Positions 8,730-54,512 of a stretch of DNA of 64,000 nt are shown piece after piece (the stretch's first letter is position 1; every line of letters starts with the position of its first letter). The notes under the pieces were generated by a model, which was given only the letters and a program-made list of their open reading frames with translations, searched no databases and had not been told where the DNA came from. The translations under genes were made by a program, and so were the position numbers. Source of the DNA: a virus (taxonomy: Duplodnaviria; Caudoviricetes); the IMG/VR virus record IMGVR_UViG_3300050491_000011; one strand, written 5' to 3'.

Positions 8730-10382
8730 ATGTCTTTGAATGAAGTAGATCGTATCCAACACAACCTCTATCAAACACTGATGGAATCCGGTTACCTTAA
8801 AGGCGACCGTACTGGCGTGGGCACTCTCATGCTGCCTGGCCTTGTAATGGACTACGACATCAGCGACAAGAAGATCCCGCTGCCGTCGACCAAAGAAGTC
8901 TTCAACAAGTCGTGGGGCTGGGAGAACCTGATGTTCATCTCGGGTTCCAGCAACCTGAAGCTTCTGAAAGACAACAACGTCTCAATCTGGGACAACTGGT
9001 TCATTCCGGGCACTGCCGTCTACGACGAACCGAAGCGTGTTGTGTATTCGCTCGATGAGCGTATTCAGGTGGCTGTTGATGCCGGTCATCGCGACATCAT
9101 CATCCAACACATCCTCGAGTACAAGAAGTTCAACGGCAGCATCGGCAGTTACGCGGTTGTTGTGCAGGATGCCGATGGCAATCTGGTCGAATACTTCAAC
9201 CGCCCTAAAGCGTATCTCGATGCACTGTGGACCTTCCTCGGTAATCTCGGTATTCCTGAGTACAACGAGAACGGTGGTGGTAAGCCTGTCGGTATCCAGA
9301 CTCGACTGAAGCGTGTTGCGAAGAACATGACCCTCTGCTGGCACGAGATCAACAAGATCGTCTTCAACTTCGGTGATGTAGTCGCCCTAGGTGATAAGCC
9401 GTACAAGGTCGTCGTCTTCCACAAAGGTAAGTTTGTTGACGTCGAGATCAGTTCGACTAAAGTCACCGCTATCAACAAGATCATGGACAACTTCGATATT
9501 CCGAAGTACCCACTTCTGGAAGCTGATATCGGTCAAGGCAGCTACGGCGTGCAATGGCGCCGTTGGCAGGATACTCAGATCGTCAGCAGCGATCAGATCG
9601 ACGAGTACGTCGCGCAAGGTTACGAGATCGCCGGTAACCTGACCTCTGATAGTGCGTGGGGTCGTGGGATGCCAGGACCTGTCAAGATGTATCACGTCAT
9701 GCACCGCGAGATCGACCAGTTGCAGAACTGCATCGACATGCTGCGCAAGAACCCTGACGATCGCCGTATGATCGTTAACGCATGGAACCCAGGTCGTACA
9801 TGGCAAGCTGCTTTACCTCCATGCCATCTGTACTTCCAGTTCATCAGCTATCCGAAGAAAGCTGGCCAGATCCTCGATGACCTCGAGAAAGCTGGCATGC
9901 TGCAAAGTCTACGCCAAGCAATCAGCGAAGACTACGGCACTCACGTAATCGAGACTGTTCAGTCCTTCGAGAAGAAGTACGAAGAAGATGAAGAGTTCTA
10001 CGGTTATGTGAAGCGTTTCTGCGAACACGCTGTAGTTGGCGTTAATCCACGCCTTATCTCGACGCTGATGGTAATGCGCAGCAACGACTACGCTTTGGGT
10101 ATGCCGTTCAACGTAGCGCAGTATGCGGCCTTGACGCACATGGTTGCACACGTCACCGGCCATGACACTGACCGTCTGATCATTGTAGGTGGTGATTGCC
10201 ACCTGTACGTGAATCAGCTGGAAGGTATCACCAAGCAGTTGGCTCGTGAGTCCAGCGAAGATAGTGATCCTCGGTTCATTATCAAACGCAAGATTGCCGA
10301 GATTGATGACTTCACTTTCGAGGACTTCAAGATCGAGGGCTACAAACCTCAGCCAAACATCCCAATGCCTGTTGCGGTGTAA
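8730..10382 (+). CDS. thyA: thymidylate synthase with large insertions
   Basis: DRTGVGT, IWDNW, YGVQWRRW, RRMIVNAWNP, ALPPCH, RSND..GMPFN, GDCHLY motifs; 550 aa versus about 265 for the usual enzyme. Confidence 0.93.
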   Translation: MSLNEVDRIQHNLYQTLMESGYLKGDRTGVGTLMLPGLVMDYDISDKKIPLPSTKEVFNKSWGWENLMFISGSSNLKLLKDNNVSIWDNWFIPGTAVYDEPKRVVYSLDERIQVAVDAGHRDIIIQHILEYKKFNGSIGSYAVVVQDADGNLVEYFNRPKAYLDALWTFLGNLGIPEYNENGGGKPVGIQTRLKRVAKNMTLCWHEINKIVFNFGDVVALGDKPYKVVVFHKGKFVDVEISSTKVTAINKIMDNFDIPKYPLLEADIGQGSYGVQWRRWQDTQIVSSDQIDEYVAQGYEIAGNLTSDSAWGRGMPGPVKMYHVMHREIDQLQNCIDMLRKNPDDRRMIVNAWNPGRTWQAALPPCHLYFQFISYPKKAGQILDDLEKAGMLQSLRQAISEDYGTHVIETVQSFEKKYEEDEEFYGYVKRFCEHAVVGVNPRLISTLMVMRSNDYALGMPFNVAQYAALTHMVAHVTGHDTDRLIIVGGDCHLYVNQLEGITKQLARESSEDSDPRFIIKRKIAEIDDFTFEDFKIEGYKPQPNIPMPVAV

Positions 10383-23160: not shown

Positions 23161-23227
23161 GTGTGAGGCAGGGGAGCTTCGGCTCCTCTGTCATTTACCT
23201 TTCTTCTTTTTTGTTGAGGTAGTTTTT

Positions 23228-23686
23228 ATGGAATTCCGTTTCAGGCCGGGTAGCTACAAGATTGAAGTCGTGGCTGTATCTCACGATAACCAACAGGTCT
23301 TCATGGATCTGGAAGGTGGTGAGACGTTTACCCTCGGTGGTACATGTTCGTTGCCACAAGTTGGTGACCACGTCATTGTGCGCGATACAGAGGCGGGGTT
23401 GGTAGTCACCATCGAGACTTCTGAAGATCCGGCGGTCAGAGTCAAGGATCTGATGGATACATGGCAGGAGATTGGTTACCATCGCTTACGCCGTCTGACC
23501 TACGAGCTGAAAGGCTTTAGTAGTTTGATGGATGATGAACAAGCCGCTATCTTCGCCGGGTTGCCTAATGCCATTGCTGTCGGGATGTTCATTGAAGAAT
23601 GCAAACATCGGAATGCTTACAGACATGAGCAGAAATACGTTCGAGCGATCCGTGAAGTTGCTAAGGCTCACCACCTGTTATCGTAA
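23228..23686 (+). CDS. hypothetical protein
   Basis: GAGGT RBS; last ORF before the RNA array. Confidence 0.6.
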   Translation: MEFRFRPGSYKIEVVAVSHDNQQVFMDLEGGETFTLGGTCSLPQVGDHVIVRDTEAGLVVTIETSEDPAVRVKDLMDTWQEIGYHRLRRLTYELKGFSSLMDDEQAAIFAGLPNAIAVGMFIEECKHRNAYRHEQKYVRAIREVAKAHHLLS

Positions 23687-23721: not shown

Positions 23722-23795
23722 GTTCGAACAGCGCCGCGCGTAGCCGCCTCTTCGTAGTGCCGCCGCCCTCTGGGCATTTCGCGGCCTGTTCGAAC
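23722..23795 (+). ncRNA. structured RNA of unknown class (16-bp closing helix)
   Basis: GTTCGAACAG/CTGTTCGAAC and GCCGCG/CGCGGC pair perfectly, enclosing 41 nt; 5 nt before tRNA-Asn. Confidence 0.5.
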
Positions 23796-23800
23796 TCTAT

Positions 23801-23877
23801 TCCGCGATAGCTCAGTTTGGTAGAGCAAACGGCTGTTAACCGTTGGGTCCCTGGTTCGAGTCCAGGTCGTGGAGCCA
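23801..23877 (+). tRNA. tRNA-Asn(GTT)
   Basis: Canonical cloverleaf; AACGG-CTGTTAA-CCGTT anticodon arm; G73; encoded CCA. Confidence 0.95.
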
Positions 23878-23892: not shown

Positions 23893-23969
23893 GGTGAACT
23901 TAGCTCAGTTGGTAGAGCAGCGGCAGGCTTAGCTGTGTGTCCTAGGTTCGATTCCTGGAGTTCACCCCA
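23893..23969 (+). tRNA. non-canonical tRNA: His-type G-1:C73 acceptor, GCT triplet in an aberrant loop
   Basis: G-GTGAACT/AGTTCAC-C-CCA; normal D and T arms; anticodon loop AGGCTTA lacks U33; short variable loop, so not a Ser-type body. Confidence 0.7.
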
Positions 23970-24009
23970 ATTCCCCAGCATGGATGCATAGATCGAGGTT
24001 TATACATCC

Positions 24010-24684
24010 ATGTCCGTAGATATCAGTACCTATCTGATCGCTACACCGCTTCCAGTATCTGAAACTAATCCAGTCGCCTTAGAGCTGCTTGGATCTCTGG
24101 CATTGATTCAATGTCCTGAGGTTGTTTCTATGCTCGAGGACGGATCTGTTCAATTCACCGCACCTACTAAAGGTGCGTCTAGTAAGAGTACTCACCGTAC
24201 TCGAACTGAATGGAAGGAACCAGAGTACTGGGCGTTGTCTAGCGCAGCTAAACACTGGAGCCGGCAGACGATGACTGTTACTAAAGTCAACTCTGCTCAG
24301 AAGGTGGTGGTTGCACAGATTCATGTCAAGGATGCTACAACGCCTCCTTTGAAAGTGTTCTGGAACAAAGGTAAGTTGACGATGGGTTTCCGCGGTAGTT
24401 TCGCTGATCCTACAATCGTTAACTATACGCTTCACACTGACGTACCCTTGGGCGTTCCGTTCAAGATCAGTATCGGTGTGACAGCCAGCGGTTCAGTGTC
24501 TGTCAACGCGTCATGTCAAGGTGTTCCTTCTCTGAAGAACGCGTTGAAGTTGAGCAGCACTTGGTTTGACCGGGTCTTGCAGTTCCATGGTGGCGTCTAC
24601 AACCAAGTCGACTACACCGACCTTACCTCTGACGAGGATGGTTCGATCTGCATTATCAGTGAGTTGTCTACAACTCACGAATGA
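24010..24684 (+). CDS. polysaccharide lyase family 7 (alginate lyase-like)
   Basis: RTRTEW (RxE), AQIH (QIH) and FHGGVYNQ (YFKAGxYxQ variant) motifs in the right order; no signal peptide. Confidence 0.8.
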   Translation: MSVDISTYLIATPLPVSETNPVALELLGSLALIQCPEVVSMLEDGSVQFTAPTKGASSKSTHRTRTEWKEPEYWALSSAAKHWSRQTMTVTKVNSAQKVVVAQIHVKDATTPPLKVFWNKGKLTMGFRGSFADPTIVNYTLHTDVPLGVPFKISIGVTASGSVSVNASCQGVPSLKNALKLSSTWFDRVLQFHGGVYNQVDYTDLTSDEDGSICIISELSTTHE

Positions 24685-24690
24685 TTCAAT

Positions 24691-24866
24691 GACTTCTATA
24701 GCTCAGTTGGTAGAGCGCCGTTATCTCATGTGTCGCGGGTTCGAGTCCCGTCATCGCTCAATGCTGGTGTCTTTCGAGACAGATGGCAAGCGGTGTAGCT
24801 CAGATGGTAGAGCAATGAAAACATACATGACGGAGGCCAGAGGTTCAATCCCTTTTGGAAGTCCCA
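24691..24866 (+). ncRNA. nested double tRNA: His-type outer tRNA with a circularly permuted tRNA inside its anticodon loop
   Basis: 24691-98 pairs with 24856-63 (8 bp) then CCA; 24789-95 pairs with 24752-58; 24718-22 with 24829-33; 24815-18 with 24726-29. Two D arms, two T arms, UUCG linker. Confidence 0.75.
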
Positions 24867-24872
24867 ATCAAT

Positions 24873-24947
24873 GGTGCAAGCCTGCGCCCGACACGAGGAA
24901 CACGACGCTAGTCAACGTTCAGTACGTCGGCCGCAGGCGGCACCACC
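24873..24947 (+). ncRNA. rod-like structured RNA
   Basis: GGTGC/GCACC, GCCTGCG/CGCAGGC, CCGAC/GTCGG and an inner GAC-GCTA-GTC hairpin; ends in ACC. Confidence 0.5.
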
Positions 24948-24953
24948 CTTTAC

Positions 24954-25030
24954 GCAGCCATAGTTCAGTTGGTTAGAATGCTCGCCTGTCACGCGAGAGG
25001 TCGGGGGTTCGAGTCCCCCTGGTTGCGCCA
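24954..25030 (+). tRNA. tRNA-Asp(GTC)
   Basis: Canonical cloverleaf; CTCGC-CTGTCAC-GCGAG; G73; CCA. Confidence 0.95.
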
Positions 25031-25034
25031 TATT

Positions 25035-25290
25035 GGATAAGTTGCTTCGGAGAGATCACCGAAGCGGCCTATCTAGTCCTTCGAGATAAGTAGTAAAGCC
25101 CGGCACCCATGGGAATGGGATCAGCTCGCTATACTGCTGACGGATGTAGCTCGTGTCCTTCTTGATTGTTAAGTTACGATGTAATCCGCATCAATGTAGC
25201 GAACGAGTGTCGAATATGATCCTTGCAGCGGCTGCGCCTGAGTAAATGCTGTCTTAACTTGACGTTACGGCGTCAGGAGGATCGCCCAAG
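25035..25290 (+). ncRNA. about 255-nt multi-hairpin non-coding region of unknown class
   Basis: 16-bp hairpin 25035-74, CCCAT-GGGA-ATGGG GNRA hairpin, TCAGC/GCTGA, GATCCT/AGGATC, TGACG/CGTCA; no ORF of 60 aa or more in the track. Confidence 0.45.
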
Positions 25291-25293
25291 TTT

Positions 25294-25444
25294 GAGCTTA
25301 TCAGAACGAGTGGCGGAATTGGTATACGCGGGGATCGCATCCCCAGGTCAGTGAATTGACACTGGCTGCCTGTCTATCGGTGGGCTAACGCCATTGCGGG
25401 TTCGAATCCCGCCTCTGAAAGGATAGACCATAGCTGATAAGCTC
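25294..25444 (+). ncRNA. tRNA-Leu-derived RNA without an anticodon, closed by an 11-bp terminal helix
   Basis: GAGTGGCGGAATTGGTATACGC Leu-type D arm; GGGAT-CGC-ATCCC stub; variable-arm hairpin; GCGGG-TTCGAAT-CCCGC T arm; GAGCTTATCAG/CTGATAAGCTC ends; no CCA. Confidence 0.65.
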
Positions 25445-25455
25445 AACGTTTTAAT

Positions 25456-25581
25456 GATTCCTGTAGCTCAGTAGAAGAGCGCCCCCACAACGGTTCGATT
25501 CCGTACGTACCCGACTTCGGTCTGGGTATGACTTGGAAAACATGGGGGAGGTCGGTGGTTCAATTCCATCTGGGAATCCCA
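25456..25581 (+). ncRNA. tRNA-like RNA: His-type acceptor, anticodon loop replaced by T-loop + UUCG module
   Basis: G-ATTCCTG/TGGGAAT-C-CCA; CCCCCA/TGGGGG anticodon stem enclosing ACGG-TTCGATT-CCGT and TACCC-GAC-TTCG-GTC-T-GGGTA. Confidence 0.75.
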
Positions 25582-25589
25582 ATTTACAT

Positions 25590-53438: not shown

Positions 53439-54512
53439 ATGATCGTGTCGAATAAACGCCCTCTCGTTTTATTTTCTGGTGGTTTGGATTCAACCTTCAA
53501 CATGCTTCGCCACACACTCGAAGGTGAGTCAGTTGATTACGTTTATATTGACGGTGGTCAAGGTAAGAATAAGGTCAATTCAGAGGAAGCGACTATCGAC
53601 CGTATTCTTACTGCCTTGCATGAACATGCTCGACGTAAGGAAAAGAGTGTCCATCATCGGTTCAGCACGCATCCTCTGTCGAAGGTTAACTTCTGCAATA
53701 CTCCTAGCGCCGGATGGCGTCAACCTATTCCTTGGCTGGTATCGGCTCTAGAGGTCGTAGATCCGGAGAAGCACTCGGTAGTTGAAGTGTCCTACGTTCA
53801 GGGCGATGAGATCATCAGTCGTATTCCTGAGCTTAAAGCTGCGTGGGCTGCAATGTGGTCAGTCACCAAGATCGGCGAACTCGTCCCACTGGAGTTCCCA
53901 CTCAAGGACATCAGTAAGCAAGCCATCCTCTGTCAGATGCCCGAAGAGATTTACAAGCTGACGTGGGTGTGTGAATTACCGATCATGCAGACGTTCGCTT
54001 GGCCAAAGAGCTGCATCGAATACGGCCGTAGCCATAACGCTCGCTGCCGTGCGTGTGAAACTCGTCTCGTTGAGCTGTATCGTTTCGAACTCCGTAACGG
54101 TAAAACTCTCGAGCAGTATCACATCGAATGCGCTGAGAAGATTGCTCGTGAAGAGCAGGGAGAGAAAGACCGTCTGCGTCGTCGACAGGAACGTATCGCT
54201 GAAGACATGGCCGATGGTTACAAGTCCGCCCTACCTCAGGATGGCGCGGTAGAGACCTTCACTCAAGACTTCTCGTTACTCGAGAAGGAAACATCGCCTA
54301 CGTTCGATCGTTTACCTAATCGCGGTGACTGGAAAGAACCAACTGTTCTGGCGGTTACTAATGCCGACGGTGAGCCGGGTGGATTCTACGTTACTGATGC
54401 AACCACGATGGACCAATTGATGGCGTACGCACACACGTCTGACTTTGAACTGATCAATGCGTGTGAAGAAATAGCAGACGCAATCAAAGACGAGAAAGCA
54501 TCAGCGGCTTAA
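53439..54512 (+). CDS. QueC-like PP-loop ATPase with C-terminal extension
   Basis: VLFSGGLDST; PL...SK..I; TWVCE...C...CRAC zinc cluster. Confidence 0.7.
   Translation: MIVSNKRPLVLFSGGLDSTFNMLRHTLEGESVDYVYIDGGQGKNKVNSEEATIDRILTALHEHARRKEKSVHHRFSTHPLSKVNFCNTPSAGWRQPIPWLVSALEVVDPEKHSVVEVSYVQGDEIISRIPELKAAWAAMWSVTKIGELVPLEFPLKDISKQAILCQMPEEIYKLTWVCELPIMQTFAWPKSCIEYGRSHNARCRACETRLVELYRFELRNGKTLEQYHIECAEKIAREEQGEKDRLRRRQERIAEDMADGYKSALPQDGAVETFTQDFSLLEKETSPTFDRLPNRGDWKEPTVLAVTNADGEPGGFYVTDATTMDQLMAYAHTSDFELINACEEIADAIKDEKASAA

Follow-up and report, generated by a model that had tools for sequence, protein, structure and literature searches.

Phage tRNA-like RNAs with a tRNA-His-type acceptor end and no His anticodon

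Layout of the RNA cluster and its genomic setting

The window analyzed here is a 64,000-nucleotide stretch of viral DNA (IMG/VR record IMGVR_UViG_3300050491_000011) and contains a cluster of RNA genes that lie on one strand (the plus strand, to which all features described below belong) and are bounded by two terminators. The first gene of the cluster is a canonical tRNA-Asn (GUU; positions 23801–23877), called by ARAGORN and scoring 64.8 bits in Rfam. Downstream lie three tRNA-like RNAs, referred to here as c1 (23893–23969), c2 (24691–24866), and c3 (25456–25581), together with a canonical tRNA-Asp (GUC; 24954–25030; ARAGORN, Rfam 69.5 bits), and the RNA-rich unit is closed by an intrinsic terminator at 25986–26004, in which a terminator scan found a stem of seven G-C pairs ahead of a T run. 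We also note a degenerate tRNA-like sequence at 25308–25415. An ORF for a PL7 alginate lyase (24010–24684; Pfam PF08787, E 1.4e-41) separates c1 from c2 in the window, and an 82-nt spacer takes its place in the phage sequence L296. The closest cellular relatives of this lyase are from Pseudomonas, and the source of the DNA is probably a large (“giant”) phage infecting Pseudomonas. A megablast search of the region against isolate phages returned no match, and the RNR has at best a 58% identical relative among isolate phages.

HisRS, a CCA-adding enzyme, Ro60/TROVE, and RtcB were all absent when searched for in the phage's own record, and TROVE was also absent from the records of five relatives, two of them complete. 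A search for a partner protein of c1–c3 found none; in the ESM Atlas, of the two flanking ORFs, that at 23228–23686 gave only sub-threshold, OB-fold-like leads, and that at 26043–26558 gave nothing named. A link to the queuosine pathway was rejected, because the PHROG label “QueC-like” rests on a Pfam QueC match of 21.1 bits, for which the cut-off is 22.

The acceptor end of c1–c3 and the origin of c1

The original prediction held that all three RNAs combine an encoded CCA with the G-1:C73 pair of tRNA-His, that their acceptor sequences differ while pairing is kept, and that, having no His anticodon, they cannot read His codons. Each of these points was borne out; the prediction did not foresee the descent of c1, the nested modules of c2 and c3, or the wider class of insert-bearing RNAs described below. 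As read from the sequence, G-1, C73, and CCA are at 23893, 23966, and 23967–23969 in c1; at 24691, 24863, and 24864–24866 in c2; and at 25456, 25578, and 25579–25581 in c3. Besides the G-1:C73 pair, each RNA has a 7-bp acceptor, formed by 23894–23900 with 23959–23965 in c1 (GTGAACT/AGTTCAC), by 24692–24698 with 24856–24862 in c2 (ACTTCTA/TGGAAGT, one G-U pair), and by 25457–25463 with 25571–25577 in c3 (ATTCCTG/TGGGAAT, two G-U pairs). The GUG anticodon is absent from all three, and His codons are unreadable either by c1, the loop of which (AGGCUUA) has no U33, or by c2 and c3, which have no anticodon loop.

The background set comprised 286 distinct non-His viral tRNAs that have a paired acceptor and encode their CCA. 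C73 was present in 6/286 of these and G-1 likewise in 6/286, and the two coincided in 2/286 only, both of which are orthologues of c1; the combination was absent from the other 284. Among genuine tRNA-His (GTG), G-1 was present in 7/8 and the G-1:C73 pair in 5/8. Across six related phage genomes or contigs, A-U-G(-1), C73, and CCA were kept in 17/17 copies of c1, c2, and c3, while every other acceptor position had turned over between the three RNAs, and all stems were kept in the six clade members through compensated changes. These results confirm a genuine His-type acceptor end that is both specific and conserved, beyond what chance would produce. Further, c1, c2, and c3 are probably paralogues and, therefore, do not represent three independent events.

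c1 was detected by ARAGORN and scored 46.2 bits with the Rfam tRNA model. Like bacterial and phage tRNA-His, c1–c3 have a cloverleaf with a 7-bp acceptor, a D arm, and a T arm, as well as the encoded G-1 with C73 and the encoded CCA; unlike tRNA-His, which presents GUG in a U33-containing loop of 7 nt, c1 has N-GGCUU-N, and c2 and c3 lack the loop. In c1, the anticodon stem (23920–23924 with 23932–23936) encloses the loop AGGCUUA (23925–23931), with G33 and U37. c1 aligns to the genuine tRNA-His of the related phages L076, L017, and L009, with acceptor and D-arm sequence common to both; its acceptor reads GTGAACT where theirs reads GTGAGCT, and GGCUU stands where they have AUGUGAC. This loop core is unchanged across five orthologues, the stems of which are compensated. 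In a complete relative genome (254 kb), the only canonical tRNAs are Asn, Asp, and Tyr; tRNA-His was not found there, and c1 occupies its slot. Judged from these alignments, c1 demonstrably descends from tRNA-His.

Nested tRNA-like modules in c2 and c3

When introns were allowed, ARAGORN reported c2 as a tRNA with a 99-nt insert. The outer body has a D arm (24701–24716), a T arm (24839–24855), and an anticodon stem (24718–24722 with 24829–24833), the strands of which are ~100 nt apart. The intervening sequence contains a permuted tRNA-like module of the YrlA type (24726–24818), consisting of an anticodon-like stem (24726–24729 with 24815–24818), a T arm (24735–24751), a capped acceptor-like helix (24752–24758 with 24789–24795), and a D arm (24798–24813). 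The nested fold was recovered by minimum free energy (MFE) folding. Further, 98.7% of cells in the c2 structure were paired compared with ~40% in slid controls, 14/38 pairs were compensatory, and 2/152 pair-cells were mismatched, one of which is T-1/C73 in L173. These results show that c2 is a complete tRNA body in which a circularly permuted tRNA-like module replaces the anticodon loop.

Rfam YrlA matches c2 at 24715–24839 (E 2.4e-7), although the 43.4 bits fall short of the gathering score (69). The T arm-hairpin-D arm layout of the insert recurs in ~35 classical YrlA RNAs from viral contigs, and its 20-nt T-arm sequence is identical to that of many phage YrlA RNAs. The insert is the module of a YrlA Y RNA (T arm, capped acceptor-like helix, and D arm) without the Ro60-binding stem. 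YrlA (RF02553; Chen et al. 2014, PMC4201824) is likewise closed by a stem, but this is the Ro60-binding helix, which is formed from the 5′ and 3′ ends and bears a GNCGAA-type motif (PMC4201824), whereas the closing stem in c2 is the anticodon stem inside a full tRNA. The Rfam E value and the module layout could be taken to mean that c2 is a classical Y RNA acting with a Ro60/Rsr protein, but we consider this scarcely credible: besides the sub-threshold score, the Ro-binding model positions are deleted when c2 is aligned, no GNCGAA-type motif is present, a TROVE gene is missing from the phage's own record and from two complete genomes of relatives, and in control genomes plain tRNA pairs are enough to trigger the YrlA model.

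c3 was likewise reported by ARAGORN, with introns allowed, as a tRNA with a 48-nt insert, and its structure was checked on alignment A4 (model R1). Its outer body has a D arm (25466–25480) and a T arm (25554–25570); the strands of the anticodon stem (25482–25486 with 25544–25548), which is common to the nested top half, are ~57 nt apart. The inner module (25490–25543) comprises a T arm (25490–25504), a UUCG-capped helix (25505–25530), and a GG-containing strand (25531–25543), and it is supported across distant phages, where c3-type modules show compensatory changes together with pairing of 98% in the inner T stem and 94% in the capped helix. On A4, no mismatch was seen in 33 pairs across 3 sequences (99 pair-cells). 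The 5-bp anticodon stem of c3 doubles as that of a minimal second tRNA top half, making the RNA a twin with two elbows. Among the alignments used, A5 comprised four sequences only, and A6, the covariation alignment, had been fitted to the structure model.

Of the three elements of the YrlA module, the inner module of c3 matches two, the T arm and the helix. It resembles the tRNA-like domain of tmRNA, which is processed like a tRNA, in being a top half with the D arm cut to a short, GG-containing strand. However, c3 has no mRNA-like frame, and the reduction affects its capped, inner module rather than the end that can be aminoacylated; an ARAGORN tmRNA search was negative, and the sole Rfam tmRNA match was a 10-bit fragment. 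In engineered tRNA scaffolds, a structured insert replaces the anticodon loop and tRNA enzymes mature the product; c2 and c3, in contrast, are natural and conserved, and their insert is itself tRNA-like. Extra small stable RNAs are also co-transcribed with phage tRNAs in the T4 tRNA cluster. Our literature searches turned up no account of tRNA-in-tRNA chimeras.

Because ARAGORN makes these calls with introns allowed (Glu-CUC for c2 and Arg-ACG for c3), c2 and c3 might be read as intron-containing tRNA genes, with c1 reading AGY codons, that yield spliced decoders, possibly inserting His at non-His codons; the window c2 can indeed give a canonical loop, AUCUCAU. We regard this as improbable. 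The implied anticodon varies among orthologues (ctc, tac, or cac in c2 and acg or aac in c3), c3 has no U33 in any splice register, and c1 has G33 and U37. A length of ~48–100 nt is less than a group I or II intron would require; no intron family was matched by the inserts at E up to 10, inspection found no bulge-helix-bulge motif, and the phage's own record does not encode RtcB. Finally, the insert structures are conserved by covariation and resemble parts of tRNAs. That c1–c3 are decaying pseudogenes or recombination scars of a shrinking tRNA array is, in our estimation, very improbable. Most tRNAs present in relatives have been lost from this clade, the cluster is rearranged between genomes, and the window holds the degenerate tRNA-like sequence mentioned above. 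However, nearly all stem substitutions are compensated (0/99 mismatched pair-cells in c3 and 2/152 in c2), nucleotides for tertiary interactions are intact, and conservation of the genes extends over six genomes, one of them complete. Further, RNA divergence is generally below the synonymous divergence of the adjacent gene (9–19% versus 38% for the window against L003), the exception being c2 against L002 (25% versus 19%). With compensated stems and no conserved anticodon, c1–c3 are therefore best taken as neither pseudogenes nor spliced decoders.

Putative histidylation and a proposed role outside decoding

HisRS charges anticodon-free mini- and microhelices with G-1:C73 and also tRNA-like structures of plant viruses that lack a proper anticodon, although in vivo the anticodon helps HisRS to select its tRNA (PMC9976931). 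Like these His-accepting tRNA-likes of plant RNA viruses and HisRS helices, c1–c3 are non-decoding and have an N-1:N73 pair (PMC9976931). The mini- and microhelices are, however, synthetic, and the plant-virus structures are the 3′ ends of RNA genomes with pseudoknotted acceptors, whereas c1–c3 are free-standing genes in the tRNA operon of a DNA phage, with a canonical acceptor, D arm, and T arm. Because anticodon-free helices with G-1:C73 are charged, it is plausible, by analogy, that host HisRS charges c1–c3 with His. The first acceptor pair of c2 and c3 is A1:U72, and this feature, together with the role of the anticodon in vivo, means that charging could be poor.

On balance, we favor, with moderate confidence, the view that c1–c3 are functional genes whose tRNA-like products do not decode and perhaps serve as decoys or tethers. 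The RNAs would be co-transcribed with tRNA-Asn and tRNA-Asp and released by RNase P, with the CCA supplied by the genome. Guided by the -1:73 pair and by the conserved U(-2) and G(-1), RNase P would be expected to cut where it does in tRNA-His, one nucleotide further upstream, so that G-1 stays on the product. The outer bodies are expected to fold as L-shaped tRNAs that display the bacterial HisRS determinants, and host HisRS should therefore bind, and probably charge, them; codon pairing would be impossible. c1–c3 thus probably engage tRNA-handling enzymes without decoding. More speculatively, c1–c3 may be stand-ins for tRNA that occupy or tether tRNA-binding factors rather than translation adaptors, and candidate factors may include HisRS, processing or modification enzymes, a tRNA-directed defense nuclease, and, via the YrlA-like module, PNPase.

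A less likely, though serious, reading is that G-1:C73 is baggage from tRNA-His or a device for processing or stability, that the RNAs are never histidylated, and that the inserts (the second elbow) carry the function; c1–c3 would then stem from a duplicated tRNA-His, and the 8-bp helix would have been retained to protect the end or to set the RNase P cleavage site. The clear tRNA-His descent of c1 agrees with this reading, as does the wider occurrence of the design. Insert-bearing tRNA-likes are also present in unrelated large phages, with several copies per genome; most are without G-1:C73, and some are without an encoded CCA. The syntenic c2 homologue of a more distant relative (L173) has T-1, C73, and CCT, nested tRNA-likes elsewhere mostly have A73 (as in L192, L194, and L197), and the -1:73 column is paired in 67% of class members versus a background of ~55%. 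His identity is therefore dispensable for the nested design and looks like a clade-specific feature overlaid on a more general design rather than its essence. Against the absence of histidylation, G-1 and C73 are invariant in 17/17 copies though all other acceptor positions have turned over, and G-1 is rare in phage tRNAs (6/286). Further, HisRS requires little beyond G-1:C73, so that escaping charging would itself need an antideterminant.

A comparison of the proteins neighboring nested tRNA-likes in unrelated phages found none in common, and only L173 was syntenic with the window. Scans of viral contigs for the exact cores of c1 and c3 matched only the L002 and L003 contigs; other matches were chance, falling in coding sequence or on the opposite strand of a tRNA-Gln. 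A scan for a tRNA-His-type 5′ half gave only bacterial-type tRNA-His at prophage ends.

We also consider a bolder form of our favored reading, which we think unlikely, in which c1–c3 represent a new class of phage “twin” tRNAs, with a chargeable body joined to a capped second elbow via the anticodon stem, that in this clade are histidylated by host HisRS and used outside decoding. If so, twin tRNAs could donate His to some non-ribosomal reaction, or they could serve as a two-handed decoy or tether, capturing a host tRNA enzyme or neutralizing a tRNA-directed host defense.

Phage tRNA arrays are mainly read as spares against host tRNA-cleaving defenses or as aids to codon usage. In c1–c3, all features needed for processing and synthetase recognition are kept and decoding is given up, which argues that phages also use the tRNA shape otherwise. 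The His-type end offers a simple, testable handle, and the c2 chimera, in separating the tRNA-like module of YrlA from Ro60, offers a route to the binding partners of that module. Finally, the wider family, with its several copies per genome in large phages that are unrelated, points to a common class of RNA that standard tRNA finders mislabel or miss.

The histidine-type end and its setting

The original prediction held that three tRNA-like RNAs, c1 (23893-23969), c2 (24691-24866) and c3 (25456-25581), carry the G-1:C73 pair of tRNA-His, an extra 5' G opposite the discriminator, without a His anticodon. Inspection of the sequence agreed with this: each RNA has a G 5' of a 7-bp acceptor stem, a pairable C at the discriminator position and an encoded CCA, and ARAGORN, with introns allowed for c2 and c3, found the GUG anticodon in none of them, describing c2 as a tRNA with a 99-nt insert and c3 as a tRNA with a 48-nt insert. 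For comparison, positions -1 and 73 were tallied in 286 distinct non-His viral tRNAs with an encoded CCA and a paired acceptor. C73 and G-1 each occurred in 6/286, and both together in only two, which are c1 orthologues; genuine tRNA-His in the tally had G-1 in 7/8 cases and G-1:C73 in 5/8. We conclude that the His-type end on c1-c3 is real and specific.

The window belongs to an IMG/VR virus record of 188 kb (estimated completeness, 75%), and c1-c3 lie within an RNA-rich stretch of its + strand, with intrinsic terminators on either side (23167-23192 and 25986-26004). Standard tRNA tools call tRNA-Asn (GUU; 23801-23877, +), tRNA-Asp (GUC; 24954-25030, +) and a "Ser-GCU" tRNA (23894-23969, +), which is c1. 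The sole ORF inside the RNA cluster (24010-24684) is a PL7 alginate lyase whose closest cellular relatives, with up to 65% identity, are nearly all from Pseudomonas. No close isolate phage was found; because of these lyase relatives, Pseudomonas is a reasonable inference for the host, in which case the gammaproteobacterial tRNA-His rule (G-1:C73) should apply. The lyase gene itself, of apparent Pseudomonas origin, looks like a later insertion of a depolymerase-type accessory gene into an RNA-only cluster, because in L296, a relative of the same clade, c2 directly follows c1 and an 82-nt spacer takes the position of the lyase. Further, we note that a 10-nt inverted repeat (GTTCGAACAG ... CTGTTCGAAC) flanks ~50 nt of GC-rich DNA immediately 5' of tRNA-Asn (23724-23796) and may act as a stem for processing or regulation where the RNA cluster begins.

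Constraint and architecture of c1, c2 and c3

Anchoring on the lyase and scanning metagenomes for the invariant core of c3, we located five more members of this clade, as genomes or contigs (L002, L003, L292, L296 and L298); the L002 genome is complete, at 254 kb, and has terminal repeats. A-U-G(-1), C73 and CCA are retained in 17/17 copies of c1, c2 and c3, and the acceptor and other stems carry compensated substitutions; the acceptors thus vary yet stay paired, as the original prediction had noted between the three RNAs. Synonymous-site divergence of the window lyase is 19% from L002 and 38% from L003. The corresponding divergence of c1 is 9% and 18%, that of c3 is ~13% from both, and that of c2 is 19% from L003 and 25% from L002, whose c2 hairpin was swapped. 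This pattern argues that c1-c3 are genes under constraint and not in decay, and the conservation and compensated stems contradict a reading of them as pseudogenes.

c1 aligns end to end with genuine tRNA-His (GUG) of the more distant relatives L076, L017 and L009, and the acceptors are nearly identical (GTGAACT in c1 versus GTGAGCT). The anticodon loop is N-GGCUU-N (G33, U37) in c1 versus AUGUGAC in these tRNA-His; the GGCUU core is constant in five c1 orthologues, with compensated variation in the anticodon stem and in the loop positions on either side of the core. In the complete L002 genome, all tRNA-model matches fall in the RNA cluster, where the canonical set is Asn, Asp and Tyr, and the same search found no tRNA-His; c1 therefore occupies the His slot of an otherwise GUN-anticodon set. 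The alignment indicates that c1 descends from tRNA-His, no longer carries the His anticodon and does not have the U33 required for a normal anticodon turn. We note that the only canonical tRNAs of the clade (Asn-GUU, Asp-GUC and Tyr-GUA) are three of the four GUN (queuosine-family) tRNAs, with His present only as c1; colicin E5-type nucleases cut the GUN set Asn/Asp/Tyr/His. We do not claim a link to the queuosine pathway, as the "QueC-like" ORF (53439-54512) scores below the Pfam QueC cut-off. L002 also has an additional tRNA-like gene between c1 and the lyase (L002:5876-5963; Rfam tRNA, 38.6 bits), with an anticodon loop expanded to ~20 nt, A73 and a CCCCA tail; the window does not have this gene, and the 3' end of its c1 aligns with both c1 and that element.

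The 5-bp anticodon stem of c2 (24718-24722/24829-24833) encloses ~106 nt arranged as a tRNA-like module in circularly permuted order: short anticodon-like stem, 5-nt variable stretch, T arm, loop-closed 7-bp acceptor-like helix, U-A and D arm. The Rfam model of YrlA, a Y RNA-like tRNA mimic, matched c2 at 24715-24839 (43.4 bits versus a gathering score of 69; E 2.4e-7), with its Ro60-binding part deleted in the alignment. Because this model also matched adjacent tRNAs in control genomes, the T-arm/D-arm layout was tested specifically. Scanning the viral collection for the c2 T-arm sequence followed by a D arm gave 71 matches, in ~40 of which a closed hairpin of 6-7 bp separates the two arms; these are mostly classical YrlA RNAs in a Ro-stem context, and only in the window clade does the module lie inside an outer tRNA. 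Across four aligned c2 sequences, one of them from L173, a syntenic relative at greater distance, 98.7% of pair cells were paired versus ~40% in slid controls, with compensatory changes at 14/38 pairs. The inner anticodon-like stem covaries when aligned by eye, MAFFT gaps breaking its columns (TCAT/ATGA, CCAT/ATGG, TCTTT/AAAGA and CCTTA/TAAGG), and the capped helix is replaced by unrelated sequences of the same shape (e.g. ATCCCC/GGGGAT with a 6-nt loop in L002). The c2 insert is, we conclude, a YrlA-type module without the Ro60 site. Ro60, RtcB, HisRS and CCA-adding genes were all absent from the phage's own record, and Ro60 also from those of five relatives; a classical Ro60-bound Y RNA is contradicted by the missing gene and the deleted Ro-binding part.

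The c3 insert consists of a 4-bp T arm that runs straight into a UUCG-capped helix, and then a 13-nt GG-containing strand, without a D arm. A single 5-bp helix (CCCCC/GGGGG) serves as anticodon stem of the outer tRNA and, on its opposite side, of the inner top half, and from this connectivity we infer that c3 is a pseudo-symmetric twin with two elbows. Splicing to decoders is contradicted by c3, where U33 is missing from the loop in every splice register, and by c2, whose implied anticodon is unconserved among orthologues (ctc, tac and cac). Overall, c1-c3 are conserved, structured, tRNA-shaped RNAs with a His-type end and without a usable anticodon.

A wider class, and proposed maturation and role

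Scans based on architecture, together with R1, a covariance model of c3, revealed comparable genes in contigs of unrelated large phages, frequently with several in one array: L192 (complete record, 324 kb) has four insert-bearing tRNA-likes, L173 has five, and L183 and L185 have two each, with further members in L194, L197, L198, L186, L016, L007 and L022. The insert is either (i) a T arm, capped helix and D arm, (ii) a T arm, capped helix and GG strand or (iii) a long hairpin followed by ACCAU (L007, L016 and L173:8132-8245). In an alignment fitted to the model (~12-15 distinct class sequences), pairing reaches 98% in the inner T stem (4/4 pairs with compensatory changes) and 94% in the capped helix (6/7 pairs). 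In the arrays L192:5532-6572 (-), L173:7524-9227 and L183:5344-5664 (-), canonical tRNAs alternate with several insert-bearing tRNA-likes of 110-160 nt.

We propose that c1-c3 would share a transcript with the canonical tRNAs and mature through RNase P cleavage and trimming of the 3' end. The RNase P cut would fall 5' of G-1, a choice promoted by the -1:73 pair and by U(-2), which is invariant; cleavage at this position is the established behaviour of bacterial RNase P on pre-tRNA-His. The host HisRS may then recognise the products: the anticodon, G-1 and C73 together make up bacterial His identity, mini- and microhelices bearing G-1:C73 are charged efficiently by HisRS, and the enzyme also accepts plant-virus tRNA-like structures that have an N-1:N73 pair (PMC9976931). 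The main competing explanation is that the RNAs are never charged and have inherited G-1:C73 as a feature serving processing or stability. It is favoured by the non-His ends of the wider class: T-1 goes with A73 in L192, L194, L197 and one element of L185, C-1 goes with T73 in the second L185 element, and T-1 goes with C73 or A73 in L173, where all elements end in CCT, not CCA. Among class relatives beyond the clade, G-1:C73 occurs only in L183, which also shares the upstream caatG, and -1:73 pairing across the class (67%) is near the phage-tRNA background (~55%). Against the inherited-feature reading, however, the rare G-1 is strictly invariant in every clade copy while the remaining acceptor turns over. 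We favour, speculatively, a role for c1-c3 as non-decoding decoys or tethers for tRNA-binding factors. The YrlA-like module of c2 suggests a second binding surface; in Deinococcus, Y RNA tethers Ro60 to PNPase (PMC4201824). We found neither tRNA-in-tRNA chimeras nor phage tRNA-likes with a His-type end and no anticodon described in the searchable literature; the parts (tRNA-His identity, the YrlA module and tRNA mimicry) are already known, and their combination and distribution appear new.

Other sequences in and around the cluster

Outside the cluster, a 550-aa ORF (8730-10382) has an unmatched N-terminal extension of ~270 residues and a C-terminal 280 residues that match thymidylate synthase families. 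The segment between tRNA-Asp and c3 (25031-25455) contains strong hairpins and is absent at that place in L002, where the gap is 17 nt. Within it, 25308-25415 resembles a type-II-like tRNA in degenerate form, interrupted by several hairpins and lacking CCA (Rfam tRNA, 20 bits), and 25216-25287 is 97% identical to L002:7148-7219, which is located after c3 in L002, indicating that the RNA cluster has been rearranged. Finally, the ~400 nt of non-coding DNA 3' of c3 (25585-25985), ahead of the terminator, is 93% identical to L002, well above the 75-81% of the flanking coding DNA. It folds unusually well (z -2.74; 0/100 shuffles as stable), holds the T-arm-like motifs GAGAGTTCAACTCTC and GAGGTTCGATCCCTC and probably represents one or more further structured RNAs.
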